NCBI GenBank assembly: GCA_007695175.1
Contig: REEH01000143.1
Location: 69,152 to 133,151 of the forward strand
Direction: 5' to 3'
DNA length: 64,000 nucleotides
Source of the DNA: Spirochaetaceae bacterium
GTDB taxonomy: Bacteria; Spirochaetota; Spirochaetia; DSM-27196; Alkalispirochaetaceae
In this document: positions 10,862 to 21,973 of the stretch, piece after piece
Layout of the letters: every line of letters starts with the position of its first letter
Position numbering within the stretch: the first letter of the stretch is position 1
The notes under the pieces: model-generated
What the model saw: only the letters and a program-made list of their open reading frames with translations
What the model was told of the DNA's origin: nothing
Databases searched by the model: none
Position numbers and translations under genes: made by a program

Positions 10862-10953
10862 CCCGCGGGATTGTACAGGGAATCCGGCCGCGGGGGAATC
10901 TTTCGGTTGTTCCCCACCGGGAGCCGTGGTACCCTTGAAAACGGGAGTTGCCA

Positions 10954-11937
10954 ATGGCCTTGAACGGAGGGAGTACTCGACGGGATTTTCTGAAGCGCGC
11001 CGGCGTGGCGGCGGTCGGGATGGGCCTTGCCCTGACTCATCCCCTGGTTGCCCGGGACGCCTTCGTCGGTGAGGAGGGGCGGCCGGATCCGGGGAGCATG
11101 CCCTGCCGGCCGCTGGGCCGAACGGGTGCAAAGGTCGCTCTTTTCAGCCTTGGCGGGGAAGCGACGGTGCAGAACCGGCAGCGTCGACGGGATGCGACGG
11201 CGATCATCAATCGGGCCCTCGATCTCGGCGTCAACTATATCGATACATCCCCCACCTACGGCGGTGGAGGCAGTGAATCCAACATCGGGGATGTTCTCCA
11301 GGATCGTCGGGAGGAGGTCTTTCTCGCTACAAAGACGCACAGTCGCACCTACGACGGGACCATGCGCCTGGTGGAAGAGTCCCTGAAGCGTCTGAGGACG
11401 GACAGGATTGATCTCTATCAGATTCATAACGTGCGGCTGCCCTCGGATCTCGCGACCGCTCTCGGTCCCGGGGGCGCCCTGAAGGCGCTGGAGGAACTCC
11501 GGTCCGCCGGAGTTATCCGCTTTACGGGAATCACGGGCCATCGCGACCCGGATGTTCTCCTGCGAGGTATCAGGGAGTACCCCTTTGACTCTCTTCTCAT
11601 GACACTCAACGCGGCGGACATACACGAACGCCCCTTCCAGAAGGAGCTGCTCCGGGAGGCGGTGCGCCGTGAGATGGGCGTGATCGCGATGAAGGTTACC
11701 GCGGTGGGTCGGATCTTCCGCGAGGGAGGAATAACCTCGATGGAGGAAGCCCTGGGATACACCCTCTCCTTCCCCGTGAGTACGGCGATCGTTGGTGTCT
11801 CCAATTTGCGGGAGCTGGAGCAGAATGTCCAGGTGGCCCGTCGCTTCACACCCTACGCGGAGGCTGAAAAGGCGAGGATCGAGAGTCTGACCCTCCCTTA
11901 TGCGGCGGAGGGCAACTTTTTCAAGCACCACTGGTAG
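10954..11937 (+). CDS. Aldo/keto reductase with twin-arginine (TAT) signal peptide
   Basis: MALNGGSTRRDFLKRAGVAAVGMGLALTHPLVA, then AKR motifs (NYIDTSPTYGGGGSE, DLYQIHN). ATG 10954 after GGGAG. Confidence 0.8.
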   Translation: MALNGGSTRRDFLKRAGVAAVGMGLALTHPLVARDAFVGEEGRPDPGSMPCRPLGRTGAKVALFSLGGEATVQNRQRRRDATAIINRALDLGVNYIDTSPTYGGGGSESNIGDVLQDRREEVFLATKTHSRTYDGTMRLVEESLKRLRTDRIDLYQIHNVRLPSDLATALGPGGALKALEELRSAGVIRFTGITGHRDPDVLLRGIREYPFDSLLMTLNAADIHERPFQKELLREAVRREMGVIAMKVTAVGRIFREGGITSMEEALGYTLSFPVSTAIVGVSNLRELEQNVQVARRFTPYAEAEKARIESLTLPYAAEGNFFKHHW

Positions 11938-11962: not shown

Positions 11963-13054
11963 ATGGCGATCTCGAGACGGGGGTTTTTGAAGAGCGCGGC
12001 CCTTGCGGGCGGAGCCCTGCTGTTCCAGAGTCACTCGTCCCGCGAGCAGGATCCCGATTCAGTCACCGGTGCGACCCCGTCCGAGGGTGCAGCGCGGGTG
12101 TCGGGAGAGTGGGTGCCGGCTTACCGCACGCTTGAGGAAGAGGGACGCTTTTCGGACAGGATTGACGAAGCCTGGGAGCACCTTGGCCGTTGCGATCTCT
12201 GTCCGCGCCAGTGCGGAGTCAATCGCCTGCAGGGCGGTCGCGGTCTGTGCCGCGCCCCGTCCAGGGTGGTGGTCTACTCCGCCCAGCCCCATTTCGGGGA
12301 GGAGATCCCCCTTGTAGGGCGGGGCGGGTCCGGTACGATCTTTTTCTCAAACTGCAACCTGCGCTGCGTATTCTGCCAGAACTGGCCCATCGCCCATGAG
12401 GGGCGGGGCCGGGAGATCAGCGACGCGGAACTGGCGGATCTCATGCTGGCGCTCCAGCGCCTGGGGTGCCACAATATCAATGTGGTAACACCGACCCACG
12501 TAATGCCCCACATACTCAAGGCGACGCGCCTGGCGATGCTCCAGGGTCTGAATCTCCCCCTGTGCTACAATACCGGCGGTTACGAGCGGCCGGAGATCGT
12601 GAAGCTCCTGGACGGCATTGTTGATATCTACCTGCCTGATATCAAGATGATGAACGGCTGGGAGGCCCGGCAGTACCTGGGAAGCGCCGAGGATTACCCG
12701 GAAATGGCCATGGGCTCCGTCCGGGAAATGCATCGGCAGGTGGGGGAGCTGCAGAAGGACAGTGCCGGTATCGCCCGGCGCGGAGTTATGATCCGCCACC
12801 TGGTGATGCCCAACGGAATCGCCGGCACGGCGGATTTTGTCCGGTGGGTTGCCTCAGAGCTGACTACCTCCACGTACGTCAATATCATGGCCCAGTACCG
12901 CGTGGAGCACCGGGCGTTCGAGTATCCACCGATTGCGAGGTCCATAACGTCCCGGGAGTTCGTGGAGGCGATGCAGCTCGCCCGGGAAGCCGGACTTACC
13001 AACCTGGATGAGCGATCGGTCATGCAGTACCAGGTGCATCGCAGTCGCGTCTGA
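11963..13054 (+). CDS. Radical SAM enzyme, PflA-like (AmmeMemoRadiSam-type architecture) with TAT-like N-terminus
   Basis: MAISRRGFLKSAALAGGALLF. N-terminal CDLCPRQC. GSGTIFFSNCNLRCVFCQNW (CxxxCxxC). GGGAGG RBS 5 nt before the ATG. Confidence 0.75.
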   Translation: MAISRRGFLKSAALAGGALLFQSHSSREQDPDSVTGATPSEGAARVSGEWVPAYRTLEEEGRFSDRIDEAWEHLGRCDLCPRQCGVNRLQGGRGLCRAPSRVVVYSAQPHFGEEIPLVGRGGSGTIFFSNCNLRCVFCQNWPIAHEGRGREISDAELADLMLALQRLGCHNINVVTPTHVMPHILKATRLAMLQGLNLPLCYNTGGYERPEIVKLLDGIVDIYLPDIKMMNGWEARQYLGSAEDYPEMAMGSVREMHRQVGELQKDSAGIARRGVMIRHLVMPNGIAGTADFVRWVASELTTSTYVNIMAQYRVEHRAFEYPPIARSITSREFVEAMQLAREAGLTNLDERSVMQYQVHRSRV

Positions 13055-14218
13055 TCAGCTCCACCGTCCGGGTATCGCCCCGTTGCAGCGTGAGCAGTGC
13101 CCATCCCGTATGTTGATCTCCTCGATTACGAAACCGAGACGCTTGATCGCGGTGGCTCCGCAGGAGGGGCAATAGGTGTTTTCTCCCTCGTGCCCCGTGA
13201 CACGGGCGACATACACGTAGTTGAGGCCCGCCTCCCGGGCCGCATCACGGGCACGATCGATCGTCGCCACCGGTGTGGGCGGGAGGTTGCTCAGCTTGTA
13301 GAGCGGGTAGAAGCGGGCCAGGTGAAGCGGCACGTCCGGACCGAGTTCGTCGTGGATCCACCGGCACATGCGGCGTATCATCGCGGTGTCGTCGTTCATG
13401 GTCGGGATCAGAAGATTGGTGATTTCCAGGTGAACACCGTTCTTTCCGAGCACTTTCAACGTATCCAGGACCGGTTGCAGCTCGCCCCCGCAGAGATTCC
13501 GGTAAAACTCCGGATCGAAGCTCTTCAAGTCCACATTCACCGCGTCCAGATTGTCCATCACCGCCGTGAGCGGCTCCCTGTTGATGTAGCCGCTGGTATG
13601 CAGAAGATTGTGCAGTCCGGCGCGGCGGGCACGTACACTCGTTTCCTGTACGTACTCCCAGAACGCTACCGGTTCACCAAAGGCATAGCTTACCGACTGG
13701 ACACCGGTGCTGCGCGCATGCTCCACCACATCCCGGGGCGGGAGGTGGTACGTATGGACCTCCTCCGGAGAAACAAGCGCCATATCCCAGACCTCACAGA
13801 AGGAGCACGACAGGGGGCAGCCGGCGGTGGAGATGGAGAGGGCCCGGGAACCGGGCAGAAAGTGGAAGAACGGCTTCCGTTCCACCGGATCCGACTGAAC
13901 GAGCGCGGGATTGCCGTAGGAGAGGGTATACCCGGTGCCGTTCTGGTTTGTCCGGACGCGGCAGCTTCCGCGTTCACCCGGCCCGATGCGGCACTCCCGC
14001 GGGCAGAGCAGGCACTGCACACCCTTGCGGGAGAGAGAACGGAACCACGGTGAGGGGTGTTTGCCCGTTACGCCCCGCGCCGTGGTCTGGGCATGCGTCG
14101 TGTGCAGGAGCCCCGGCGCTCCCAGGAGACCCGAAAGGCAGAGTGCCCCCGCACCGAATGCGCCGGCTTTCAGTATTGCCCGCCGTTGAAGATCGATCCC
14201 TTCTTTTCCCTTTTTCAT
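13055..14218 (-). CDS. Radical SAM enzyme, PflA-like paralog with TAT-like N-terminus and C-terminal CxxC...CxxC
   Basis: Start at MKKGKEGIDLQRRAILKAGAFGAGALCLSG (ATG 14218, ATGA overlap with the upstream stop). CLLCPRECRIG. AGCPLSCSFCEVWD. C-terminal CPSCG...CSRCNG. The listed N-terminal ORF extension overlaps the upstream gene in another frame. Confidence 0.75.
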   Translation of the reverse strand: MKKGKEGIDLQRRAILKAGAFGAGALCLSGLLGAPGLLHTTHAQTTARGVTGKHPSPWFRSLSRKGVQCLLCPRECRIGPGERGSCRVRTNQNGTGYTLSYGNPALVQSDPVERKPFFHFLPGSRALSISTAGCPLSCSFCEVWDMALVSPEEVHTYHLPPRDVVEHARSTGVQSVSYAFGEPVAFWEYVQETSVRARRAGLHNLLHTSGYINREPLTAVMDNLDAVNVDLKSFDPEFYRNLCGGELQPVLDTLKVLGKNGVHLEITNLLIPTMNDDTAMIRRMCRWIHDELGPDVPLHLARFYPLYKLSNLPPTPVATIDRARDAAREAGLNYVYVARVTGHEGENTYCPSCGATAIKRLGFVIEEINIRDGHCSRCNGAIPGRWS

Positions 14219-16638
14219 GGCCCGCTTCCTTTCTCCGATATCCTCAGTATACCATGGGATACGGCGTTTCCCGTAGCGGCGAGCATGCAGCACGCCACGA
14301 TTCCCAGCACGGGAGCCACCGCGAGTCCCGCAAGAAGCGATCCGAGACACGCCCCGAAAAGCTCCATGCCATATACGATTCCGGTCGTGCCCTCGGCGTT
14401 GCCCCTGATCCGGTGGTAGCAGGCCGTCGTGAGGGGGAAGTCGAAGCCGTTCAGAAATCCTGCCGAGAACGTGAGGGTGAAGAAGAAGCCCAGGAGAATC
14501 ATTGGTCTTTCGATCGTTGCGATAGGGGGGAGAGCGAGCCCGATAAGAAGCGCCCAGACCGCGATGATCAGCTGCACCCGACGGAGAACGAGGCGGCTTC
14601 CGGGATCCGGAACGAAGCGCCGGGCCGCCGTCGCGCCGAGAGCCAGCCCCACCATGAAGGCCGCTACGATCAGCCCGATCATCTCGTAGACGTATCCGTA
14701 AAAACTCTGGAAGGCGAAAAGAAGCGCGATCTGCAGCGCCATCGTGGAAAGGCCGGTGGTGAAAACCGCCACGAGAACGGCATACCGGTCGCTGCGCTTT
14801 CCGTCGCGTCGCTTGTCGCGCCCCCGGAGCAGGACCGCCGTGAGGAGAGCCAGGAGGATCGGCGGAATGATCCACCAGGGGCGGATACGGAGGATCCACG
14901 TAATCACTCTCCCCGGGGAATCCCGGGTCAGAGTACTCCAGTACGCCAGGGTATGCACGTATCCGATCGGTCGGAAGTCGGAATTGATAAAGTAACCTTC
15001 ATTGATCGGAGGCAGATCCTTCTCCATGCTTTCCTGCTCCGGTATGGTGGGAACCAGGAGCGGCACGGGCTCCGGCCCGTCCATGTGGGCCGATGGTGTC
15101 CGCCCGTGATTGCGAAGAATCCAGCCGAGCCGTCGGAGCGGGTCCTCCTCCAGGAGGAGCTGGAACTGGAATGGCGAGAAGGTGCTCTCCCGGATGCCCC
15201 GTTCGAGATAGCGCATTTGCAGGATCGATGGATCGGCGGTGGTTATCCCCGCACTTCCGGCGGCCACGAAGGTCAGGTGGCGCTGCCCCAGGGGCAGCAC
15301 GTGGTCAAAGACTCGTTTCAGGGTGTGATAGATGGTAGCGTTGCGGTTTGCCAGAGCGCGTCCACGCAGATCGGCGGCGGAGCCGACGCCGATCACCAGA
15401 ACGCCCCGCTCCTGGAGGCGCCGTGCCGCTTCCCGAAAAAACTCCTCCGTGTAGTAGCGGTTCAACACCGCCGTGAAGGGATCGGGTGTATCAATGATGA
15501 TGATGTCGTAGAGCTCCGCCTCGGAATCCGCACCGCCCCCTCCCGACTTGATAAAGAGGCGCCCGTCGCCATGGAGAAGACGCACCTCCCGCCGGTCCAG
15601 GGGTTCCGTCCTTGATCGGGGCAGGTGCTGTCGCGCCACCCTGGTCAGTACCGGATCGAGCTCAAGGTAATCCACCCGTTCCACCGGATGGGTCAGGATT
15701 TCGCGCAGAATGCCCCGCAGACCGCCTCCTACAAGCAGAATCCGTCGCGGCCGGGGATGCTGCGTCAGGGCCAGGTGCGCTGCGGTGATCGCCTCCTGTT
15801 CCTCCAGTTCCACCTCACCGGCGGAGAAAACCAGGTTGCCGCTCTGGAAGAAACTGTACTGGCCCTCCCGATGCGCGACGGAAACCGTTCCGTAGCGCGA
15901 CTGGTGGACCGCGAGGAGCTGGTGTTCCGGGCTGAAATACTTCCATTGCTGCTGGTGCGCCCACCCGTCGAAGGTGTCCAGAAAGGGGAGGGAGAGAATC
16001 AGGGTGGCGATCACGATCCAGAGCGGAATACGGCCGGTACGGGATGCCACGGTGAGCGAGGCCAGGGCCATCACGATACCTGCCAGAACCACCGCATGAA
16101 AGGAAGAGATGCGGTTCACCAGGAGGAGGGAGAAGAGCACCCCCCCCAGTGCGTTGCCCAGGGCCTCGGTGACGTAGGTCTTTCCCGCGCCGCCCTCGTT
16201 TTCCAGACCGTCCCGGAGCCGCCACGCCCGGGCGAGCAGAACAAAGAGCATTCCCAGGAGCACCCCGACCGGTGCGGTTACCAGGAAAACGGAGAGCGTC
16301 ATATCCGGTATGGAGAGATACGCTCCCGGCTGAACGGAGAAGAATGAGCGCAGTATCCGCACGAGGAAGAGCGTTACCGGCAGCAGTATCGGCAGGATCG
16401 TGCCGGTGAGCGCTATTGCCGGAGCGGGAGACGTGTCTCCGGTGAACCGGCTCGCCACGTATCCGGCCCCCACGCTGCCCAGACCGACCCACACCATCCA
16501 CGCTCCGAGAATGATTCCCATGGAGAGCTCGTTGCCGTGAAAGACGATCAGCAGTTCCCGCAGGAGTACGATCTGCCCGATCTGACCCACGATACCCAGG
16601 GAAAGTACGAGTGCCGGTGTAGCATGTGTCCTCTTCAT
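14215..16638 (-). CDS. Fused MFS-like membrane domain / spermidine synthase-like (aminopropyltransferase fold) protein
   Basis: 807 aa. N- and C-terminal polytopic membrane regions flank a SpeE-like core (ILLVGGGLRGILREI...YLELDP...DIIIIDTPDP...GVLVIG). Confidence 0.7.
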   Translation of the reverse strand: MKRTHATPALVLSLGIVGQIGQIVLLRELLIVFHGNELSMGIILGAWMVWVGLGSVGAGYVASRFTGDTSPAPAIALTGTILPILLPVTLFLVRILRSFFSVQPGAYLSIPDMTLSVFLVTAPVGVLLGMLFVLLARAWRLRDGLENEGGAGKTYVTEALGNALGGVLFSLLLVNRISSFHAVVLAGIVMALASLTVASRTGRIPLWIVIATLILSLPFLDTFDGWAHQQQWKYFSPEHQLLAVHQSRYGTVSVAHREGQYSFFQSGNLVFSAGEVELEEQEAITAAHLALTQHPRPRRILLVGGGLRGILREILTHPVERVDYLELDPVLTRVARQHLPRSRTEPLDRREVRLLHGDGRLFIKSGGGGADSEAELYDIIIIDTPDPFTAVLNRYYTEEFFREAARRLQERGVLVIGVGSAADLRGRALANRNATIYHTLKRVFDHVLPLGQRHLTFVAAGSAGITTADPSILQMRYLERGIRESTFSPFQFQLLLEEDPLRRLGWILRNHGRTPSAHMDGPEPVPLLVPTIPEQESMEKDLPPINEGYFINSDFRPIGYVHTLAYWSTLTRDSPGRVITWILRIRPWWIIPPILLALLTAVLLRGRDKRRDGKRSDRYAVLVAVFTTGLSTMALQIALLFAFQSFYGYVYEMIGLIVAAFMVGLALGATAARRFVPDPGSRLVLRRVQLIIAVWALLIGLALPPIATIERPMILLGFFFTLTFSAGFLNGFDFPLTTACYHRIRGNAEGTTGIVYGMELFGACLGSLLAGLAVAPVLGIVACCMLAATGNAVSHGILRISEKGSGP

Positions 16639-16723
16639 GCGTCCGTGGAACCGCCTCCACCCCCCACTGTAACGCTCCCGGTTTTTCCGGTCAATGCTCG
16701 GTACGACAGCTGCGACGGCGGTG

Positions 16724-16743
16724 GCCGCGGCCGCAGCCGCGGC
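16724..16743. other. Perfect GC hairpin GCCGCGGC-CGCA-GCCGCGGC abutting the mnhD-1 stop codon
   Basis: Read directly. No U-tract on either strand, so not called a terminator. Confidence 0.3.
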
Positions 16744-18276
16744 TTATCCGAAGACGACGAGCTGCAGGTAGATCATCTCCGTAAAGAAAAGCACCACGAT
16801 GTAGAGGAGTTCGTAGTTCAGATTACGGAAGAAAAAGCGCGTATCGAGACGGGAAAGAATTGACAGCCGGCGATACAGGGGACGGGCAAATACCAGGGCA
16901 CTCCCCATAACGGCCAGATCTATCAGGAAAGCAATGCCGGGCCGGCTGAGCGGGTAGGGGAAGGCAAGGTAATAGATCGCAAACATGGCAAGAAAGGTGA
17001 GGTAGAAGAGGTTGTTCTCCTTCTTCCGGACGATGCGATATCGGAACTTGAAGAACGCCCCCAGCACCAGAAACATCGAGAAGTAAACAACCAGGCGATA
17101 ACCCCCGAAGGACCCGACGAACTGGTACTTCAGTGCGTACGTCAGGGCGGGAAAGAATCCGGTGGTGAACAGAACGCCCAGACCACATATGGTGAGAGCT
17201 TTCCAGCTTCCCGCAACGCGCAGGTCGTCCTGGCGGGACTCGTCGTAGTCGAACTGGTCGTAGAGGAGGAAGAGGAGGCACTTGTACAGACCGTGAACGA
17301 CGATGTACGTAAAGGCTACCTCGTACATGCGGTAGGAGAGCATCAGCCCGATAAAACCGATCGTGAAGACCGTGGTTCCCGCGATGACGCGTTTGAGATG
17401 GGGCTCGAAGAAGAGAAAGAGTGCCGGCAAGAGCATGGTCGTCACCGAGAGAATACGCAGAAAATCGAAGATCCCCGTAAACCCCAGCAGGTCCGCCGGT
17501 ACAAGAACGAGGTAGTAGAGCCCGTAAATACCTGTGAAGATCGTAAAGGCCGAAAGAAATGCGGAGATGAGGGAGTTGGTGGCGGTATGGCACGTGCTGA
17601 CCCAGCTTGAGACGGGGAAAAACGCACCTTTCACAAAGAATGCGGTGCTGAACAGCAGCAGCACCAGGTGCAGGTTGTATTCACTGAAGGTCATTATCTG
17701 ATCCACGAAGGAGAACCCGAAGTAGGAACCGGAGGCGTAGAGCAGGATCACACCACCGAGGAAAAGCGCCGAACTTGAAGCGCCGATGATCATGTACTTG
17801 ATTGAGGCGTAATACTTGCCCTTGATACCGATCAGGACGTAGGCAGCCATGATCATTACCTCGTAGAAGACGTAGAAAGTAAAGACGTCGCCCGTGACCA
17901 GAAGCCCACTGCAGCCGGCCAGGTAAAAGAGGAGGATCATGCGGACGTACTGCGTCTTGAAGAGGTGAAGGCGGAAAAGGGTAAAGAGAAGCGGTGTCAG
18001 GTAAGCCGCGAGGAAGTAGGTTTTGTGGGCATCAAAGGCAAATACTATTGAGTAGTCCCATTCGGAAATGGCTGTTACAAAGACACCCTCGTAACCGATG
18101 AAGGATGCGATAATCACTGCCCCCGAGGCCAACTGGGCCAGGACTACCGCTACGATGACGGCCGAGGAGATGTCACGGCGCAGAAGGTACTTGGCGGTGA
18201 GGATAAACACATTCCCCAGGAGCGGGAGAACGGGGAAGAAGAGGAGCAGTGTCCGCACCAGGTATTCAGCGTTCAT
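16744..18276 (-). CDS. mnhD: Mrp/Mbh antiporter subunit D (NuoN/MbhH-like proton-translocating subunit), cluster 1
   Basis: 510 aa, ~14 TM, complex-I subunit 2/4/5 family pattern. Confidence 0.8.
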   Translation of the reverse strand: MNAEYLVRTLLLFFPVLPLLGNVFILTAKYLLRRDISSAVIVAVVLAQLASGAVIIASFIGYEGVFVTAISEWDYSIVFAFDAHKTYFLAAYLTPLLFTLFRLHLFKTQYVRMILLFYLAGCSGLLVTGDVFTFYVFYEVMIMAAYVLIGIKGKYYASIKYMIIGASSSALFLGGVILLYASGSYFGFSFVDQIMTFSEYNLHLVLLLFSTAFFVKGAFFPVSSWVSTCHTATNSLISAFLSAFTIFTGIYGLYYLVLVPADLLGFTGIFDFLRILSVTTMLLPALFLFFEPHLKRVIAGTTVFTIGFIGLMLSYRMYEVAFTYIVVHGLYKCLLFLLYDQFDYDESRQDDLRVAGSWKALTICGLGVLFTTGFFPALTYALKYQFVGSFGGYRLVVYFSMFLVLGAFFKFRYRIVRKKENNLFYLTFLAMFAIYYLAFPYPLSRPGIAFLIDLAVMGSALVFARPLYRRLSILSRLDTRFFFRNLNYELLYIVVLFFTEMIYLQLVVFG

Positions 18277-18577
18277 GTATCTCCGATATCTCTATCGTCC
18301 CGTGGTGTTGAAAATACTTCACGACAAAGGCGAGGGCGAGCGCGTTGAAGCAGACCCCTATTACGATCGCCGTAAGCATCAGGGCCTGCGGTACGGGATC
18401 CACGAATGTGGACTCCGGCACGCTGAGAATCGGAGCGGCGGCATGCGCCTGGAACCCGGTGGTGAGAAAAGACATCACCACGATACCCTGAACGACCGTG
18501 AGGCTCATGATTTTCCTGATCAGGTTGTCACAGACCACCAGCCCGTAGAGACCGACAAAGAGAATCAGCAGCGTCAT
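18266..18577 (-). CDS. mnhC: Mrp antiporter subunit C (NuoK-like), cluster 1
   Basis: 103 aa, 3 TM, MrpC-like; overlaps mnhD by 11 nt. Confidence 0.8.
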   Translation of the reverse strand: MTLLILFVGLYGLVVCDNLIRKIMSLTVVQGIVVMSFLTTGFQAHAAAPILSVPESTFVDPVPQALMLTAIVIGVCFNALALAFVVKYFQHHGTIEISEIHER

Positions 18578-18861
18578 GAGGTGCTCCGGATATACTTCAT
18601 ACCGAAGACGGTGAGGATCACCACGTTCACCTCCAGGAAAGTATCAAAAATCCGCGGTCCCAGGTACACCACCGCCACCATGTTCTCAATGTTCATGTGT
18701 TCCGCCAGCCCCCGGAAATCGGGAACGACCTGGCTGAAAACGAGATCGATTCCCCGCATGTAGGTCGCCACGTACACCAGCGATCCCAGCAGTATCACCG
18801 CCACGAGGGAATCAAAGATGACCTTGCGTCGTTTTTTCCTGTCAGTCCCGGTATGGTTCAT
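18574..18861 (-). CDS. Mrp subunit B-like small membrane protein (MbhF-like), cluster 1
   Basis: NMVAVVYLGPRIFDTFLEVNVVILTV matches the MrpB signature (NVV-x-IL-x-x-R-x-FDT-x-GE). 4-nt overlap with mnhC. Confidence 0.6.
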   Translation of the reverse strand: MNHTGTDRKKRRKVIFDSLVAVILLGSLVYVATYMRGIDLVFSQVVPDFRGLAEHMNIENMVAVVYLGPRIFDTFLEVNVVILTVFGMKYIRSTS

Positions 18862-19273
18862 CGCCTTTCCATTCTATCAGGGATCGGTAGATCAGGATCA
18901 GGGACCCCGAAACCTCGCTGTAGATAGCGAGGTTGAGGAGCCAATAGAAGACGTTTGAGAACATGGGGCTTCTCGTGGTGACCCCGTAGAGACCGGAGAA
19001 AAAGAAGTCCGTCAGGAAAAACCCGACGATGAGCGCGGTAAAGAGAAAGATAATGCCCAGGAACTCGATCTTCATATAGAAGGAGTTCTCAAAAATACGG
19101 CGACTGAAGACCATTTCCACCACGATTACCACCGTTCCGAAGACAACCCCCGCCTGGAAGCCGCCGCCGGGGAAGTTTGCTCCGTAGGAAGTCAGGTAGA
19201 ACCCGAACATCGCTATGAAAGGAAAGAGCATTCCCACGGTGTTTTTCAGTATGGCCGATTCACGAAGATCCAT
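18842..19273 (-). CDS. MnhB-domain membrane protein (MbhE-like, GGGFQGG motif), cluster 1
   Basis: 143 aa with FPGGGFQAGVVFG. In cluster 2 this region is fused with the MrpB-signature region in one gene. Confidence 0.65.
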   Translation of the reverse strand: MDLRESAILKNTVGMLFPFIAMFGFYLTSYGANFPGGGFQAGVVFGTVVIVVEMVFSRRIFENSFYMKIEFLGIIFLFTALIVGFFLTDFFFSGLYGVTTRSPMFSNVFYWLLNLAIYSEVSGSLILIYRSLIEWKGDEPYRD

Positions 19274-19629
19274 TACTTCCGTACCTCGTACTCCGCACCG
19301 ATGTAGATCGGGCAGGGAAAGGCCATCAGCGTACCCACCTCCGGTTGCGTCAGATCAATACCGTCCCGTCTGAGAGCGGCGTTCAGGGAGAATATGGTCT
19401 CCCGGTCAGGAACGACCGAGATTATCGTTTTGTTGAAAAGGATATCCTGCCCGAAGAGCGCGGTGACCTCGCTGAGAATTGGTGCGGTCTCGGTCGCCAC
19501 GTTTTCCACACCCTCACCGTCCAGGACGGAGGTGTCGAAAAGTCCCAGTTCCACCAGGGTCGATACAACGGGTTTCGCGTAGGCCTCGCTTTTCAGGATG
19601 ATGATCACCACATGCATGGAGTTGTCCAT
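19273..19629 (-). CDS. Hypothetical P-II-like (GlnB-fold) protein embedded in Mrp cluster 1
   Basis: MHVVIIILKSEAYAKPVVSTLVELGLFDTSVLDGEGV has the beta-alpha-beta spacing of P-II/SbtB-like proteins. Start uncertain (ATG 19629 or 19617). 1-nt overlap with the downstream MnhB start. Confidence 0.4.
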   Translation of the reverse strand: MDNSMHVVIIILKSEAYAKPVVSTLVELGLFDTSVLDGEGVENVATETAPILSEVTALFGQDILFNKTIISVVPDRETIFSLNAALRRDGIDLTQPEVGTLMAFPCPIYIGAEYEVRK

Positions 19630-19636
19630 CGTTGTA

Positions 19637-20095
19637 CTAATCCTCCCGGGGCTCTTCAAATGCACTGATCAGATCCCGCACCGCCTGGGGATCGCGCTTG
19701 AGGAAGACCTCCTCCGCATCGGGTCGCGAGAGGAATCGGGAAAGGCGGGCCATCAGGCTGAGGTACGTGCGGGACATCGAGTCCGGTACGATGATGCAGA
19801 GTACCGTATGGGCCGTTTCCCCCCGGCGATATCGTACGGACTTTGACAGGAGACCGACGCTGATACAGATTTCCGGGATCTCCGACGTGCGGGTATGTAC
19901 GAGAAAGAAACCGTTCCCCAGGTTCACCTCTTTCTTCCGGCTGAAAGCGGTGATATCGCTGTATATGCGCTCGTGAAAGCTTTCCGGTTCCTCCGGCAGG
20001 GCAGCGGCAATGAGTATACGCAGAATCTCCTCCCGACGGTCCGTCTCTACCGGTATTATTCTATCCGCCGGAATGTATTCCAAAAGGCTTTTCAT
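19637..20095 (-). CDS. PTS EIIA type-2 domain protein (Fru/Ntr class) embedded in Mrp cluster 1
   Basis: 152 aa. GNGFFLVHTRTSEI places a His at the position of the phosphorylatable His of EIIA-2 domains. AAGGAGA RBS. ATGA overlap with the upstream DUF4040 stop. Confidence 0.65.
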   Translation of the reverse strand: MKSLLEYIPADRIIPVETDRREEILRILIAAALPEEPESFHERIYSDITAFSRKKEVNLGNGFFLVHTRTSEIPEICISVGLLSKSVRYRRGETAHTVLCIIVPDSMSRTYLSLMARLSRFLSRPDAEEVFLKRDPQAVRDLISAFEEPRED

Positions 20096-20346
20096 TGATC
20101 ATTCTCCTTGCTGGTTTTCCGAATTGCTACCAGAAAAACGATTGTGGTGAGGCCCGTTCCCAGAGCCGCCTCGGTAATCGCCACGTCCGGTGCGTTGAGT
20201 ACAAAGTAGTTCAGAGCGAGAAACATGCTGAAAACGCTTAGCCCAAGCAGCGACATGATTATGCTGCGGGAGAAGACGACCACCACGGTGGCGGCAAGCA
20301 GAAAAACATGAAGCAGCTGGTCGAGCGTAAGGGGTAACTGGAGCAT
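20092..20346 (-). CDS. DUF4040-like small membrane protein (MnhB N-terminal domain, MbhD-like), cluster 1
   Basis: 84 aa from the internal ATG of ORF 20092..20694; 3 TM; the listed upstream part of that ORF overlaps mnhG in another frame. Confidence 0.55.
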   Translation of the reverse strand: MLQLPLTLDQLLHVFLLAATVVVVFSRSIIMSLLGLSVFSMFLALNYFVLNAPDVAITEAALGTGLTTIVFLVAIRKTSKENDQ

Positions 20347-20348
20347 CA

Positions 20349-20639
20349 CTACTGTCCCGCCCGATATTGACGGTACTTGATATAGGACAGGCCGAGAATA
20401 TGAGCGATCAGCGGTGAGGTTATTATGGTAATCGCCGCGAGTACGATGACCTTGATGATAAAACCGATACCATCCACCAGGAGAAGCAACCCCAGGAATA
20501 CCGTCAGGGACCCGGTGGCTCCACACTTGGTGCCGGCGTGAAAACGGGTAAGAGTATCGGGGAGAATGATCATTCCCAGGTTTCCCCAGAAGACGATGAA
20601 GAGACCAAGTGAAGCGAGAACGTACCCTATAATAGTCAT
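20349..20639 (-). CDS. mnhG: Mrp antiporter subunit G, cluster 1
   Basis: 96 aa; LTRFHAGTKCGATGSLTV matches the MrpG RxHAxTKxxTxG signature. Confidence 0.8.
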   Translation of the reverse strand: MTIIGYVLASLGLFIVFWGNLGMIILPDTLTRFHAGTKCGATGSLTVFLGLLLLVDGIGFIIKVIVLAAITIITSPLIAHILGLSYIKYRQYRAGQ

Positions 20640-20902
20640 AACGATACCATTTCCTCCGAGCGGTCCGGTCCGACGAGACGTACATAGGCGACAATCTCCG
20701 TGAAGGAGAGCAGCGCGTAAATCATCGCGACATCCATGTAGAAAACGTGATTGTAATGAACGGCGTAGAACGCCATCAGAAGCGTGACGTGGGCTGACAC
20801 CATATTAAGAGCAAGCAGTCTATCGTAGAGATTTGGGCCGATGATGAGGCGCACGATACTCATGGCGGTGAGGGCGTAGGTAACGTAAATAAGCACTATC
20901 AT
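20636..20902 (-). CDS. mnhF: Mrp antiporter subunit F, cluster 1
   Basis: 88 aa, 3 TM; N-terminus IGPNLYDRLLALN... is MrpF-like. Confidence 0.7.
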   Translation of the reverse strand: MIVLIYVTYALTAMSIVRLIIGPNLYDRLLALNMVSAHVTLLMAFYAVHYNHVFYMDVAMIYALLSFTEIVAYVRLVGPDRSEEMVSL

Positions 20903-21444
20903 CCGAAGATCCTTTCCAGAATATCCTCGATGAGGAAGGTGATCATGCGGGATGCTCTCTTGCTGTGCCGCGTTTCCACGTTGAACCAGTGCACGTATAT
21001 GGTGCTGCCTTCCATCCAGAGCGAAAGGGTTCCCGGCACGATTGATATGGTATTGCAGAGAACGGCGCGCCCGAAGGGGGAGCGCAGGCGCGTCCGTATC
21101 TTGACTATGCCCGGACGATAGTCTCCGGTAAGCATGCGTCGGACGATATCGATGATGGCGATGTAGCTGAGATAGAGGATGACCGCCACGTATATGATAA
21201 CCAGATCGAGACGGAGAAAGATCCGTGCCGTAGGACGCAGGTGCTGCTCGTAAAAGAGTCCAAAGGAGTACAATGCGGAGGCGAAGGAAAGCACCACCGC
21301 CACGGAGAGGGAGAGGGGATTAAGATCCTGCGCCATCAGGATCCAGAAGATGAAACACAGCAGGAAAACGGTGAGAATGCGCATAATGATGAGCCGCTTT
21401 TCCTTTTCCCGTTGCTGGGCTATCGGTGCGATGGTGTTTCTCAT
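20899..21444 (-). CDS. mnhE: Mrp antiporter subunit E, cluster 1
   Basis: 181 aa; N-terminal TM pair plus ISIVPGTLSL (MrpE TLTPGT-like). First gene of the cluster. Confidence 0.75.
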   Translation of the reverse strand: MRNTIAPIAQQREKEKRLIIMRILTVFLLCFIFWILMAQDLNPLSLSVAVVLSFASALYSFGLFYEQHLRPTARIFLRLDLVIIYVAVILYLSYIAIIDIVRRMLTGDYRPGIVKIRTRLRSPFGRAVLCNTISIVPGTLSLWMEGSTIYVHWFNVETRHSKRASRMITFLIEDILERIFG

Positions 21445-21526: not shown

Positions 21527-21973
21527 ATGCTGTTTACGGAACTGGACGAATCGCTGGTGGCGATAAATCTTCCCGCCAGGACACGGGACGAGGTGATAGA
21601 TCAGCTTCTCGGTATGCTGGACAGGACCGGAAAAGTAAGGGACCTCGATCTTGCCCGGACGGACATTGAGCGCAGCGAGCAGTTGATGGCATTCGGTATG
21701 CAGCACGGGATCGCGATTCCCCACGCCAAGACGGAGGCGGTGGAAGAACTGCTGGCTTGTTTTGCCGTTACCGAAAACCCGGTGGATTTCTCCGGCATTG
21801 ACGGCACACCGAGCCGGATATTCATCATGACGCTCTCACCGCCCGACCAGATTGGTCCCCATATCCGCTTCCTCAGCGAGATCGGTCGCCTTCTGAAGAA
21901 CCGGAAGGTGCGCAAGGCGATACTTGGCGCCGAGACTCCGGAACAGCTGCTGCGGATAATCAAGGGCCGGTGA
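21527..21973 (+). CDS. ptsN: PTS EIIA(Ntr)-like protein (PtsN family)
   Basis: 148 aa; HGIAIPHAKT with the canonical phospho-His context of EIIA-2; sits between the two Mrp clusters. Confidence 0.8.
   Translation: MLFTELDESLVAINLPARTRDEVIDQLLGMLDRTGKVRDLDLARTDIERSEQLMAFGMQHGIAIPHAKTEAVEELLACFAVTENPVDFSGIDGTPSRIFIMTLSPPDQIGPHIRFLSEIGRLLKNRKVRKAILGAETPEQLLRIIKGR

Follow-up and report, generated by a model that had tools for sequence, protein, structure and literature searches.

A fused MFS/SpeE-fold protein and its radical-SAM partner are chance neighbours of an Mrp operon in a spirochaete

Introduction

Ten Mrp-type genes, a gene for a fused membrane/SpeE-fold protein and a radical-SAM gene follow one another on the minus strand of a Spirochaetaceae bacterium, and the question raised by this locus is whether they constitute one system or two. 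The region covers positions 13055-21444 of the window, the whole 64,000-nt stretch of DNA that was analysed (GCA_007695175.1, contig REEH01000143.1, positions 69,152-133,151). A first-pass annotation had described it as one translationally coupled array; its genes, with correct coordinates for all minus-strand ORFs, the gap of 105 bp with its GC hairpin, and the overlap at ATGA were borne out, while the absence of a promoter and the single coupled array were not. In this spirochaete the Mrp genes and the fusion/radical-SAM genes are separate units and neighbours by chance, and the whole is best read as two independent units juxtaposed by a lineage-specific rearrangement (probability about 0.7).

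16744-21444, minus strand: unit A, ten-gene Mbh-type Mrp operon (Pfam/NCBIfam, fold; conserved as a unit)
14215-16638, minus strand: unit B gene 1, the fusion gene (807 aa), MFS with a SpeE-fold insert in the central loop
13055-14218, minus strand: unit B gene 2, radical-SAM gene (387 aa), AmmeMemoRadiSam family (TIGR04337, PF04055)
11963-13054, plus strand: rSAM2, second radical-SAM gene (363 aa), convergent with unit B gene 2 (PF04055, TIGR01409)

The Mrp operon

Unit A is a self-contained operon for an Mrp cation/proton antiporter of the Mbh type, and genes for EIIA-like and P-II-like regulators lie within it. MNHE, MrpF, MnhG, MbhD, EIIA_2, MnhB, MrpC and MrpD are backed by Pfam/NCBIfam, and the fold predicted for the 118-aa product resembles P-II (AF2 pLDDT 71; Foldseek match to SbtB 7egk_B, E 1e-4). 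The genes are tightly packed: neighbours overlap by up to 20 nt or stand at most 7 nt apart.

20899-21444, minus strand: MnhE (Pfam/NCBIfam)
20636-20902, minus strand: MrpF (Pfam/NCBIfam)
20349-20639, minus strand: MnhG (Pfam/NCBIfam)
20092-20346, minus strand: MbhD (Pfam/NCBIfam)
19637-20095, minus strand: EIIA_2 (Pfam/NCBIfam)
19273-19629, minus strand: P-II-like, 118 aa (AF2 and Foldseek fold match)
18842-19273, minus strand: MnhB (Pfam/NCBIfam)
18574-18861, minus strand: 95-aa gene
18266-18577, minus strand: MrpC (Pfam/NCBIfam)
16744-18276, minus strand: MrpD (Pfam/NCBIfam), stop at 16744-16746

The gap between the units

Coupling along the array ends at the 105-bp gap (16639-16743) between the mrpD stop and the fusion gene, where two elements were located.

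16724-16743, minus strand: perfect GC hairpin abutting the mrpD stop (8-bp stem, 4-nt loop, without U tract)
16666-16694, minus strand: promoter-like TTGACC-N17-TACAGT, 27 nt before the fusion-gene ATG

The second of these, in a gap earlier said to hold no promoter-like stretch, is the single match in the 64-kb window, is matched in 0 of 100 shuffles, and recurs with identical hexamers and spacing in loci L091-93 and in L017, a locus without Mrp. A promoter-like sequence thus belongs to unit B itself. The hairpin was not found in the closest relative (L091), and folding of the gap region is no stronger than that of shuffled sequence (z -1.35). Transcription may nevertheless read through from mrpD into unit B, since the 105-bp gap holds no canonical terminator and the closest relative (L091-93) keeps the Mrp/fusion adjacency with a gap of 49 bp.

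Gene neighbourhoods of the two units

Seventeen Mrp/EIIA proteins of the window were compared by tblastn with 95 SpeE-fusion loci. Mrp genes lie upstream only in L091-93, one lineage with a common protein 72% identical to the 807-aa protein. Among loci with 3 kb or more of upstream sequence, they were not found at 13 of the 15 of the close subfamily, the two with Mrp being of one lineage, nor at any of the 36 distant ones. Two sister spirochaete MAGs (GCA_003557615.1 and GCA_007130865.1) carry both units, the ten-gene Mrp cluster (Mrp-2) and the SpeE trio, on different contigs with unrelated flanks, and elsewhere the Mrp-2 cluster is kept as a unit followed 3' by unrelated genes (L096-L100), terminating at mrpD in three other lineages (L096-L098).

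These distributions run against the Mrp coupling proposed at first, and against a model in which the Mrp/Mbh module, the SpeE-fold fusion and the radical-SAM enzyme share an operon and assemble into a single complex, with SAM-consuming enzymes standing in for the hydrogenase module and energetically coupled to ion translocation. Such a complex would suit the shared strand, the short gap without a canonical terminator and the adjacency persisting in the closest relative; it is already largely refuted by the gene-neighbourhood data and disfavoured by the conserved promoter-like element in the gap, and hardly any likelihood is left to it. Peripheral modules of Mbh and complex I are moreover cytoplasmic, whereas the SpeE-like domain and both of its partners are predicted to lie on the outer face. 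Unit B is thus very probably an independent conserved module that is not Mrp-coupled.

The co-occurrence of fused MFS/SpeE and radical-SAM genes across genomes, on the other hand, is strong. At all 19 close loci where the downstream sequence runs to 400 bp or more, a radical-SAM gene comes next on the same strand; where it runs to 2.6 kb or more, the convergent rSAM2 is present in 9 of 11. The fusion-gene TGA overlaps the radical-SAM ATG (ATGA, 14215-14218), and the same stop/start overlap occurs in Thioalkalivibrio paradoxus, Dehalococcoidales, Firmicutes and spirochaetes. Since the pair is real, strongly conserved and translationally coupled, the earlier picture of a SAM-using module at the membrane, with radical chemistry, describes it fairly; that part of the original interpretation is supported, and Mrp coupling, aminopropyl transfer and the lack of any described system are not. 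Through this widespread, uncharacterised gene pair, SAM-dependent enzymes appear to be placed on the membrane's outer side.

Architecture of the fusion protein

The fusion passes the NF037959 'fused MFS/spermidine synthase' model (47.9, cut-off 40) with both MFS and SpeE parts present. In the membrane it forms the 6+6 repeat of an MFS transporter (12 helices), into which a helical hairpin of two extra helices is inserted.

16054-16620, minus strand: MFS N-half, TM1-6 (residues 7-195)
15934-16041, minus strand: extra TM7 (residues 200-235, an AF2 helix), leaving the membrane toward the SpeE-like domain
15259-15921, minus strand: SpeE-fold (Rossmann) domain (residues 240-460), predicted extracytoplasmic
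15712-15729, minus strand: GGGLRG (residues 304-309) in place of GGGDGG (alignment to solved SpeE structures)
15478-15492, minus strand: D383-T-P-D386-P, counterpart of the SpeE catalytic DSSDP
14893-15231, minus strand: helical subdomain (residues 470-582) with invariant N552 and D554 (AF2 secondary structure, conservation)
14815-14880, minus strand: extra TM8 (residues 587-608), then a strongly basic loop, RGRDKRRDGKRSDR
14236-14799, minus strand: MFS C-half, TM9-14 (residues 614-801)

Lys and Arg residues average 24.0 on the N-terminal side and 5.8 on the SpeE side in 23 homologues. Because of the positive-inside rule, the MFS topology and the predicted export of the partners, the SpeE-like domain is placed, with fair confidence, outside the cytoplasm.

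Cofactor and catalytic residues of the SpeE-like domain

The SpeE fold retains the adenosyl-binding Glu and Asp residues (E326, D328 and D358, invariant) and the catalytic D383-T-P-D386-P, of which D383 and D386 are kept in 19 of 19 close-subfamily sequences, the window protein included. D383 is Asn in 46 of the 67 distant relatives. R308, N393, R394, Y396 and T397 are invariant around the pocket in the close subfamily. The residues that distinguish dcSAM, by gripping its aminopropyl amine and shutting out SAM, are replaced: the Asp of GGGDGG (position 307) is never Asp or Glu in 86 relatives, which read GGG(L/V/I/M/T)x, with Leu307 in the window protein, and the dcSAM-holding Gln is Phe in all 86 (here Phe271). 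The role of this Asp in spermidine synthase is documented, D103I abolishing activity and creating a SAM methyltransferase activity (PMC3725402).

Aminopropyl transfer, as first proposed, is therefore an unlikely activity for a domain that reads GGGLRG. The database annotation goes further and would have the 807-aa protein be a membrane-anchored polyamine aminopropyltransferase with a cytoplasmic catalytic domain and unrelated radical-SAM neighbours. This is very improbable: the equivalog scores are far under the cut-offs (TIGR00417, 79 against 249.55; PRK00811, 101.4 against 260; PRK03612, 164 against 472), the Asp lost here is the one whose substitution inactivates genuine spermidine synthases (PMC3725402), charge bias puts the domain outside the cytoplasm, and the radical-SAM partner, always present, is tied to it by translational coupling.

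The radical-SAM partners

The 387-aa enzyme matches TIGR04337 with 335.5 bits (cut-off 220; profile positions 3-333 of 349) and also PF04055, so that the locus does not lack a described relative, as had been supposed. Its nearest solved structure is the pyruvate formate-lyase activating enzyme 3c8f (E 1e-10).

14168-14188, minus strand: QRRAILK
13991-14014, minus strand: CLLCPREC
13796-13819, minus strand: CPLSCSFC (CX3CX2C)
13085-13171, minus strand: C-terminal CxxC...CxxC
11972-11992, plus strand: rSAM2 Tat signal SRRGFLK
12191-12214, plus strand: rSAM2 CDLCPRQC
12353-12376, plus strand: rSAM2 CNLRCVFC

QRRAILK is followed by a hydrophobic stretch, and then by THA-Q; TIGR01409 scores no match on this N-terminus, so the Tat assignment of this enzyme is a putative one, made from the motif and from how widely it is conserved. 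The RR motif is found in 39 of 53 partner enzymes, most others having KR/RK or Sec-like N-termini; several homologues show a lipobox after the signal, and in Nitrospirota relatives (L004-6) the partners carry no signal. The second enzyme, rSAM2, matches PF04055 and, with 21.2 to 24.4 bits (cut-off 16.7), TIGR01409, and belongs to a large family whose members are at least 60% identical even between phyla.

A proposed working of unit B

Our best guess is that unit B, made up of the MFS/SpeE-fold protein, the coupled Tat-type radical-SAM enzyme and the convergent Tat-signal rSAM2, is an extracytoplasmic SAM-dependent modification system. Briefly, both radical-SAM enzymes would fold with their Fe-S clusters and then be exported or anchored through Tat; the SpeE-like domain, on the same outer face, would bind the adenosyl part of SAM, not dcSAM; the MFS part would carry SAM, or a substrate, across the membrane; and together they would modify an envelope or extracytoplasmic substrate, moving a group of SAM to a nucleophile and adding radical chemistry. 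This specific export-and-transfer mechanism is put forward tentatively; to our knowledge, no supply of SAM or of a low-potential reductant is known outside the cytoplasm.

The SpeE-like domain might instead be no transferase at all, serving as a ligand-binding domain of the MFS that either delivers exported SAM to the radical-SAM enzymes or takes 5'-deoxyadenosine and methionine back up; the chemistry would then fall wholly to those enzymes, with Memo/AMMECR1 where present. The invariant adenosyl-binding residues, the Asn so often found at the catalytic Asp position in distant relatives, the SAM supply that exported radical-SAM enzymes would need and a membrane part that is a true MFS transporter would all fit; the close subfamily, however, retains D383, D386 and the invariant pocket residues and so resembles a catalytic site, and we know of no SAM-exporting MFS. 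This alternative is accordingly considered unlikely, and the modification system is preferred.

Comparison with known systems

Unit A resembles Mbh/Mrp modules (Pyrococcus Mbh; bacterial Mrp) in its order E-F-G-MbhD-...-MnhB-...-C-D and single antiporter-like subunit; it differs in having no hydrogenase or other peripheral module and in the EIIA-like and P-II-like genes inside; nor is its association with the SpeE/radical-SAM pair, the candidate peripheral part, a conserved one.

Compared with SpeE aminopropyltransferases (Thermus 1uir, P. horikoshii 2e5w, human 2o06; membrane-anchored PRK03612), the domain has Leu and Phe for Asp and Gln, interrupts a 12-TM MFS protein at its central loop, via two extra helices, and is predicted to be extracytoplasmic. 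Plant putrescine N-methyltransferase, likewise with a hydrophobic residue at the key Asp position, is SAM-dependent and evolved from spermidine synthase, the Asp change switching the cofactor from dcSAM to SAM (PMC3725402). That enzyme is soluble and cytosolic, without membrane part or radical-SAM partner, and the likeness offers a precedent for a cofactor switch only, not a relationship. The 387-aa enzyme shares the radical-SAM core and CX3CX2C with 3c8f; it differs in the extra N-terminal CxLCPxxC, the C-terminal CxxC...CxxC, the putative Tat-type signal at the N-terminus and the lack of a glycyl-radical enzyme nearby.

The closest system is AmmeMemoRadiSam (TIGR04335/TIGR04336/TIGR04337), of whose radical-SAM family the 387-aa enzyme is a clear member. 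The AMMECR1-Memo-radical-SAM neighbourhood was first noted by Balaji and Aravind in 2007, with a proposed role in RNA modification (PMC2034487). Distant relatives of the 807-aa protein adjoin complete sets, including Memo-AMMECR1 fusions with signal peptides, and loci of this distant subfamily also hold Tat-signal DUF362 and DsbD_2. Memo gene contexts were reportedly extended by Burroughs et al. in JBC in 2019. With a Memo-AMMECR1 fusion as tblastn query, about 35 distant loci matched, and neither Memo (PF01875/TIGR04336) nor AMMECR1 (PF01871/TIGR04335) was found in the 64-kb window or in close-subfamily loci L001-L003 and L007-L024; in Pfam lists, AMMECR1 is absent within 10 kb at L007, L008, L009 and L094. 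Unit B has a second, PflX-like radical-SAM enzyme instead of Memo/AMMECR1, its constant partner is the MFS/SpeE-fold fusion, and Tat-type or Sec signals head the soluble components, at odds with the role in RNA modification put forward in 2007. Unit B is probably a reduced form of an AmmeMemoRadiSam-type system that is exported.

Conservation of the Fusion Gene and Its Radical-SAM Partners

The 807-aa protein (14215-16638, minus strand), in which an MFS transporter is fused to a SpeE-fold domain, has the same sequence as TVR68375.1, annotated as "spermine synthase" in a Spirochaetaceae MAG, and belongs to a family (2,854 representative clusters, E <= 1e-30) that is routinely labelled spermidine or spermine synthase. 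Relatives were collected as 95 loci from species-representative genomes, exact-sequence look-ups, and a metagenome scan queried with an alignment of 23 homologues, a single-protein scan of representative genomes having yielded 6 loci only. All 95 were searched with 17 Mrp/EIIA proteins of the window and with its other neighbour genes. A close subfamily (at least 41% identity) and a distant one (27-34%) are referred to below.

A constant feature of the close subfamily is an AmmeMemoRadiSam-type radical-SAM gene, found next and on the same strand in 19/19 loci with at least 400 bp downstream, its start usually overlapping the stop of the fusion gene. The pairing proposed in the first-pass annotation is thus kept in every informative close locus, and its ATGA overlap in the window was confirmed. 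Carriers of the pair include Thioalkalivibrio paradoxus, Dehalococcoidales, Firmicutes, candidate division CSSED10-310, and spirochaetes, among others. In the window the partner is a 387-aa enzyme (13055-14218, minus strand) scoring 335.5 bits with TIGR04337 against a cut-off of 220. A second, convergent radical-SAM gene (rSAM2; 11963-13054, plus strand) accompanies the pair in 9 of the 11 close loci with enough downstream sequence; its twin-arginine signal passes TIGR01409, and no curated NCBIfam family matches it above cut-off.

The rSAM2 family is very large. Its members from Spirochaetota, Chloroflexota, Planctomycetota, Bacillota, and Desulfobacterota are at least 60% identical, and the usual name is "putative pyruvate formate lyase activating enzyme". 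The gene 25 nt upstream of rSAM2 (10948-11937, plus strand) encodes a Tat-signal aldo/keto reductase (TIGR01409 28.9 bits); its link to the module was rejected, the gene being beside the module in none of the other loci searched. In L094/L095 (1587-9701) and upstream in L001, the trio of fusion and two radical-SAM genes sits beside genes for a polyprenyl synthase, a UbiA prenyltransferase, a CDP-alcohol phosphatidyltransferase, a methyltransferase, and an MFS protein, which look like a lipid-synthesis set. An isoprenoid-lipid link was also set aside, this association being confined to one spirochaete lineage.

Relationship to the Mrp Cluster

The first-pass annotation had read the trio's upstream neighbour, a 10-gene Mbh-type Mrp cluster (Mrp-2), as one coupled array with the fusion and radical-SAM genes. 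The minus-strand ORFs of 13055-21444 are present as it listed them, with family assignments backed by Pfam and NCBIfam; neighbouring ORFs of Mrp-2 overlap by up to 20 nt or stand at most 7 nt apart.

Genes of the Mrp-2 cluster
20899-21444, minus strand: MnhE (Pfam/NCBIfam)
20636-20902, minus strand: MrpF (Pfam/NCBIfam)
20349-20639, minus strand: MnhG (Pfam/NCBIfam)
20092-20346, minus strand: MbhD (Pfam/NCBIfam)
19637-20095, minus strand: PTS EIIA_2 domain protein (Pfam/NCBIfam)
19273-19629, minus strand: 118-aa protein, no family match, P-II-like by fold
18842-19273, minus strand: MnhB (Pfam/NCBIfam)
18574-18861, minus strand: 95-aa membrane protein
18266-18577, minus strand: MrpC (Pfam/NCBIfam)
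16744-18276, minus strand: MrpD (Pfam/NCBIfam)

Among the 95 loci, Mrp genes occur only in L091-93, which share one fusion protein (72% identity to that of the window) and keep the full gene order of the array with a gap of 49 bp. They are absent from 13/15 close-subfamily loci and 36/36 distant loci with at least 3 kb upstream. Conversely, the Mrp-2 cluster, traced via its 118-aa protein, is conserved in three further lineages, where a histidine kinase, an NAD-binding protein, or a convergent rhodanese follows it. Two sister spirochaete MAGs encode both units on separate contigs: Mrp-2 on PWNX01000100 and the trio on PWNX01000002 in GCA_003557615.1, and SLRR01000157 and SLRR01000191, respectively, in GCA_007130865.1.

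The 105-nt gap between mrpD and the fusion gene was confirmed, as was the 8-bp GC hairpin at 16724-16743. The gap had been described as free of promoter-like sequence, but it contains TTGACC-17 nt-TACAGT (16666-16694; 27 nt upstream of the ATG), the single match in the 64-kb window (0/100 shuffles). An element with identical hexamers and spacing occurs in L091-93, its -35 overlapping the mrpD stop, and in L017, where the homologue is 50% identical and another gene lies upstream; apart from a weaker version in L003, a sigma-70-like motif ahead of the fusion gene was seen only in these loci and the window. Transcription may also read through from mrpD into the fusion gene. A terminator or regulatory RNA role for the hairpin was rejected on the lack of a U tract, a folding z of -1.35, and its absence from L091.

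Because Mrp genes are limited to L091-93, the units lie on separate contigs in sister MAGs, other genes follow Mrp-2 elsewhere, and the promoter-like element recurs, we conclude from these comparisons that the adjacency probably reflects recent synteny. An Mrp-coupled complex would, if real, be a new kind of ion-coupled enzyme complex; the neighbourhood data count against it and indicate accidental synteny.

Within Mrp-2, two soluble regulator-type genes, for the EIIA_2 protein and the 118-aa protein, lie between MbhD and MnhB (19273-20095, minus strand), which suggests that the antiporter is under nucleotide- or phosphorylation-sensing control. The 118-aa protein has a P-II-like fold (AF2 pLDDT 71; best Foldseek matches SbtB, CPII, and GlnK; 7egk_B E 1e-4), and its family is narrow: 13 clusters share at least 65% identity, and the gene always lies in this 10-gene cluster. 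G+C is lower at 16-22 kb, and a foreign origin of the cluster was considered and ruled out because GC3 (0.72-0.74) equals that of neighbouring genes and the drop is confined to GC1 and GC2, as expected for membrane proteins. Upstream of mnhE, a PtsN-like EIIA gene on the opposite strand (21527-21973, plus strand) separates Mrp-2 from a second Mrp cluster (21976 to about 27400, minus strand), which contains two MrpD-like genes and is preceded by acetyl-CoA synthetase. Since acetyl-CoA synthetase directly abuts Mrp-2 in sister MAGs (L096, L099), the second cluster looks like an insertion in the window lineage.

Architecture and Topology of the 807-aa Protein

The AF2 model of the fusion protein (pLDDT 83.9, pTM 0.84) comprises four segments, the SpeE-like domain being borne by the hairpin of helices 7 and 8.

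Segments of the 807-aa protein (AF2)
Residues 7-235: seven N-terminal helices
Residues 240-460: Rossmann domain
Residues 470-582: helical subdomain
Residues 587-801: seven C-terminal helices

With hhalign, helices 1-6 and 9-14 align as homologous direct repeats (probability 98.9%, E 1e-17). The membrane part is therefore a 6+6 MFS whose central loop has helices 7-8 inserted as a hairpin, an arrangement that was preferred to a 7+7 inverted-repeat transporter fold. Both termini and the central loop of MFS proteins are cytoplasmic, so the inserted hairpin would place the SpeE-like domain outside. The charge bias agrees, with a K/R mean over 23 homologues of 24.0 on the N-terminal side vs 5.8 on the SpeE side, and so do the exported-type partners. 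The sequence that follows helix 8 is RGRDKRRDGKRSDR.

An RR motif is present in 39/53 adjacent radical-SAM enzymes, most others having KR/RK or Sec-like N-termini. Several of the signals end in a lipobox, which points to Tat-exported lipoproteins. Such lipoboxes (LAGVSGC, LAGILGC, ILAAC) are found in L009 (12436-13611 and 13614-14666), L008 (12432-13607), and L007 (13594-14652), in radical-SAM enzymes of Firmicutes, Dehalococcoidales, and Thioalkalivibrio homologues. TIGR01409 does not score the N-terminus of the window's 387-aa enzyme, and the Tat call there is therefore based on QRRAILK. Only the Nitrospirota partners have no N-terminal extension; in this group the system may be cytoplasm-facing, or else the topology of the fusion protein may differ. 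These signal-less enzymes belong to L004-L006 (Thermodesulfovibrionales); a Memo-AMMECR1 gene follows the radical-SAM gene in L004 and L006, and L005 ends about 230 bp past it. Overall, the presence of signal-bearing radical-SAM enzymes as constant partners suggests a system that works in the cell envelope.

The SpeE-like Active Site

The family name implies aminopropyl transfer, which the first-pass annotation also proposed. In aminopropyltransferases, dcSAM is held at its aminopropyl amine by the Asp of GGGDGG and a conserved Gln, the same Asp being presumed to repel the SAM carboxylate; D103I in Datura SPDS1 abolished spermidine synthase activity and gave SAM-dependent methyl transfer, and D101I in the T. 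maritima enzyme lowered kcat about 2000-fold (PMC3725402). When the 807-aa protein is aligned to solved SpeE structures, GGGLRG falls on GGGDGG and Phe271 on the Gln. Position 307 is never Asp/Glu in 86 relatives; close-subfamily members have L there, distant ones V/I/L/T. The adenosyl-binding and catalytic residues are kept, namely E326 (ribose), D358 (adenine), and the catalytic loop D383-x-P-D386-P. Invariant positions are E326, D328, D358, D378, N393, R394, Y396, T397, N552, and D554, together with G35, E37, and Q644 in the membrane part.

The SpeE core thus retains its catalytic Asp and adenosyl pocket, but use of dcSAM is unlikely because the Asp and Gln that hold the aminopropyl amine are replaced by Leu and Phe. 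All aminopropyltransferase equivalog scores are far under cut-off, while the protein passes NF037959 "fused MFS/spermidine synthase", and the topology is unfavourable as well; together these argue against the annotated function. Since the family lacks the residues that define the activity, polyamine metabolism has probably been wrongly inferred in many genomes. Judged by the residues retained, the ligand is most likely SAM, whose carboxylate R308 or R394 might contact, and in the close subfamily the Asp pair suggests methyl or aminocarboxypropyl transfer to a nucleophile. Alternatively, the domain may merely bind SAM or 5'-deoxyadenosine in the service of the radical-SAM enzymes; D383 is Asn in 46/67 distant relatives, which favours binding only, and Asp in 19/19 close sequences.

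A Putative Envelope Module and Its Relation to Known Systems

In the distant subfamily a radical-SAM gene is also nearby, in variable arrangement, and the loci further carry signal-peptide Memo-AMMECR1 fusions, Tat-signal DUF362, DsbD_2 membrane proteins, and DUF169. Because these genes are combined there, the 807-aa family is a recurrent partner of the AmmeMemoRadiSam system; the 64-kb window holds the radical-SAM member only, with neither Memo nor AMMECR1. Examples are L064 (12219-16169), L044 (8911-16180), and L039 (7302-9980), where the fusion relative is flanked by assorted genes: signal-peptide Memo-AMMECR1, Tat-signal radical-SAM, and one or two Tat-signal DUF362, or DsbD_2 with DUF169. 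The N-termini of some distant radical-SAM partners resemble Sec rather than Tat signals, an oddity for an Fe-S enzyme.

The best-supported reading of the trio is an envelope-located, SAM-dependent modification module. Both radical-SAM enzymes would be exported folded by Tat, the SpeE-like domain would face the same compartment, and the MFS part would carry SAM or substrate across. More broadly, many phyla may perform extracytoplasmic radical-SAM chemistry in which an MFS protein with an outward SpeE-like SAM-binding domain supplies or uses SAM for Tat-exported enzymes and, elsewhere, exported Memo/AMMECR1; this proposal is tentative, with a probability of roughly 0.3. The main weakness of the envelope-module reading is that neither SAM nor a suitable reductant is known to occur outside the cytoplasm. 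In distant loci, the neighbouring DsbD_2 and Tat-signal DUF362 genes give a hint of an electron route; nothing like it was found in the window.

Such SAM-dependent and radical-SAM chemistry beyond the cytoplasm would be unexpected, and the module would at the same time correct the widespread "spermidine synthase" annotation. We know of no biochemical function established for Memo and AMMECR1, which are conserved up to humans, and the proposed module, if true, would give the Memo/AMMECR1/radical-SAM system its first cellular location and functional context. An envelope location of the signal-bearing Memo/AMMECR1 versions is not consistent with the older RNA-modification proposal. A cultured carrier of the module is Thioalkalivibrio paradoxus ARh 1, in which the locus is at 2.696-2.700 Mb of CP007029.

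Literature searches, incomplete in coverage, returned no account of a constant partnership with the MFS/SpeE-fold fusion, of signal peptides on all soluble components, or of the reduced two-radical-SAM variant; they gave nothing functional on AmmeMemoRadiSam, nothing on the MFS/spermidine synthase fusion, and no Tat-exported radical-SAM enzyme, the HXS system exporting a matured effector rather than the enzyme. Both families are named, and the AmmeMemoRadiSam neighbourhood has been known since 2007, its function not being known (PMC2034487). Among enzymes of solved structure, the nearest relative of the 387-aa protein is PFL activase.
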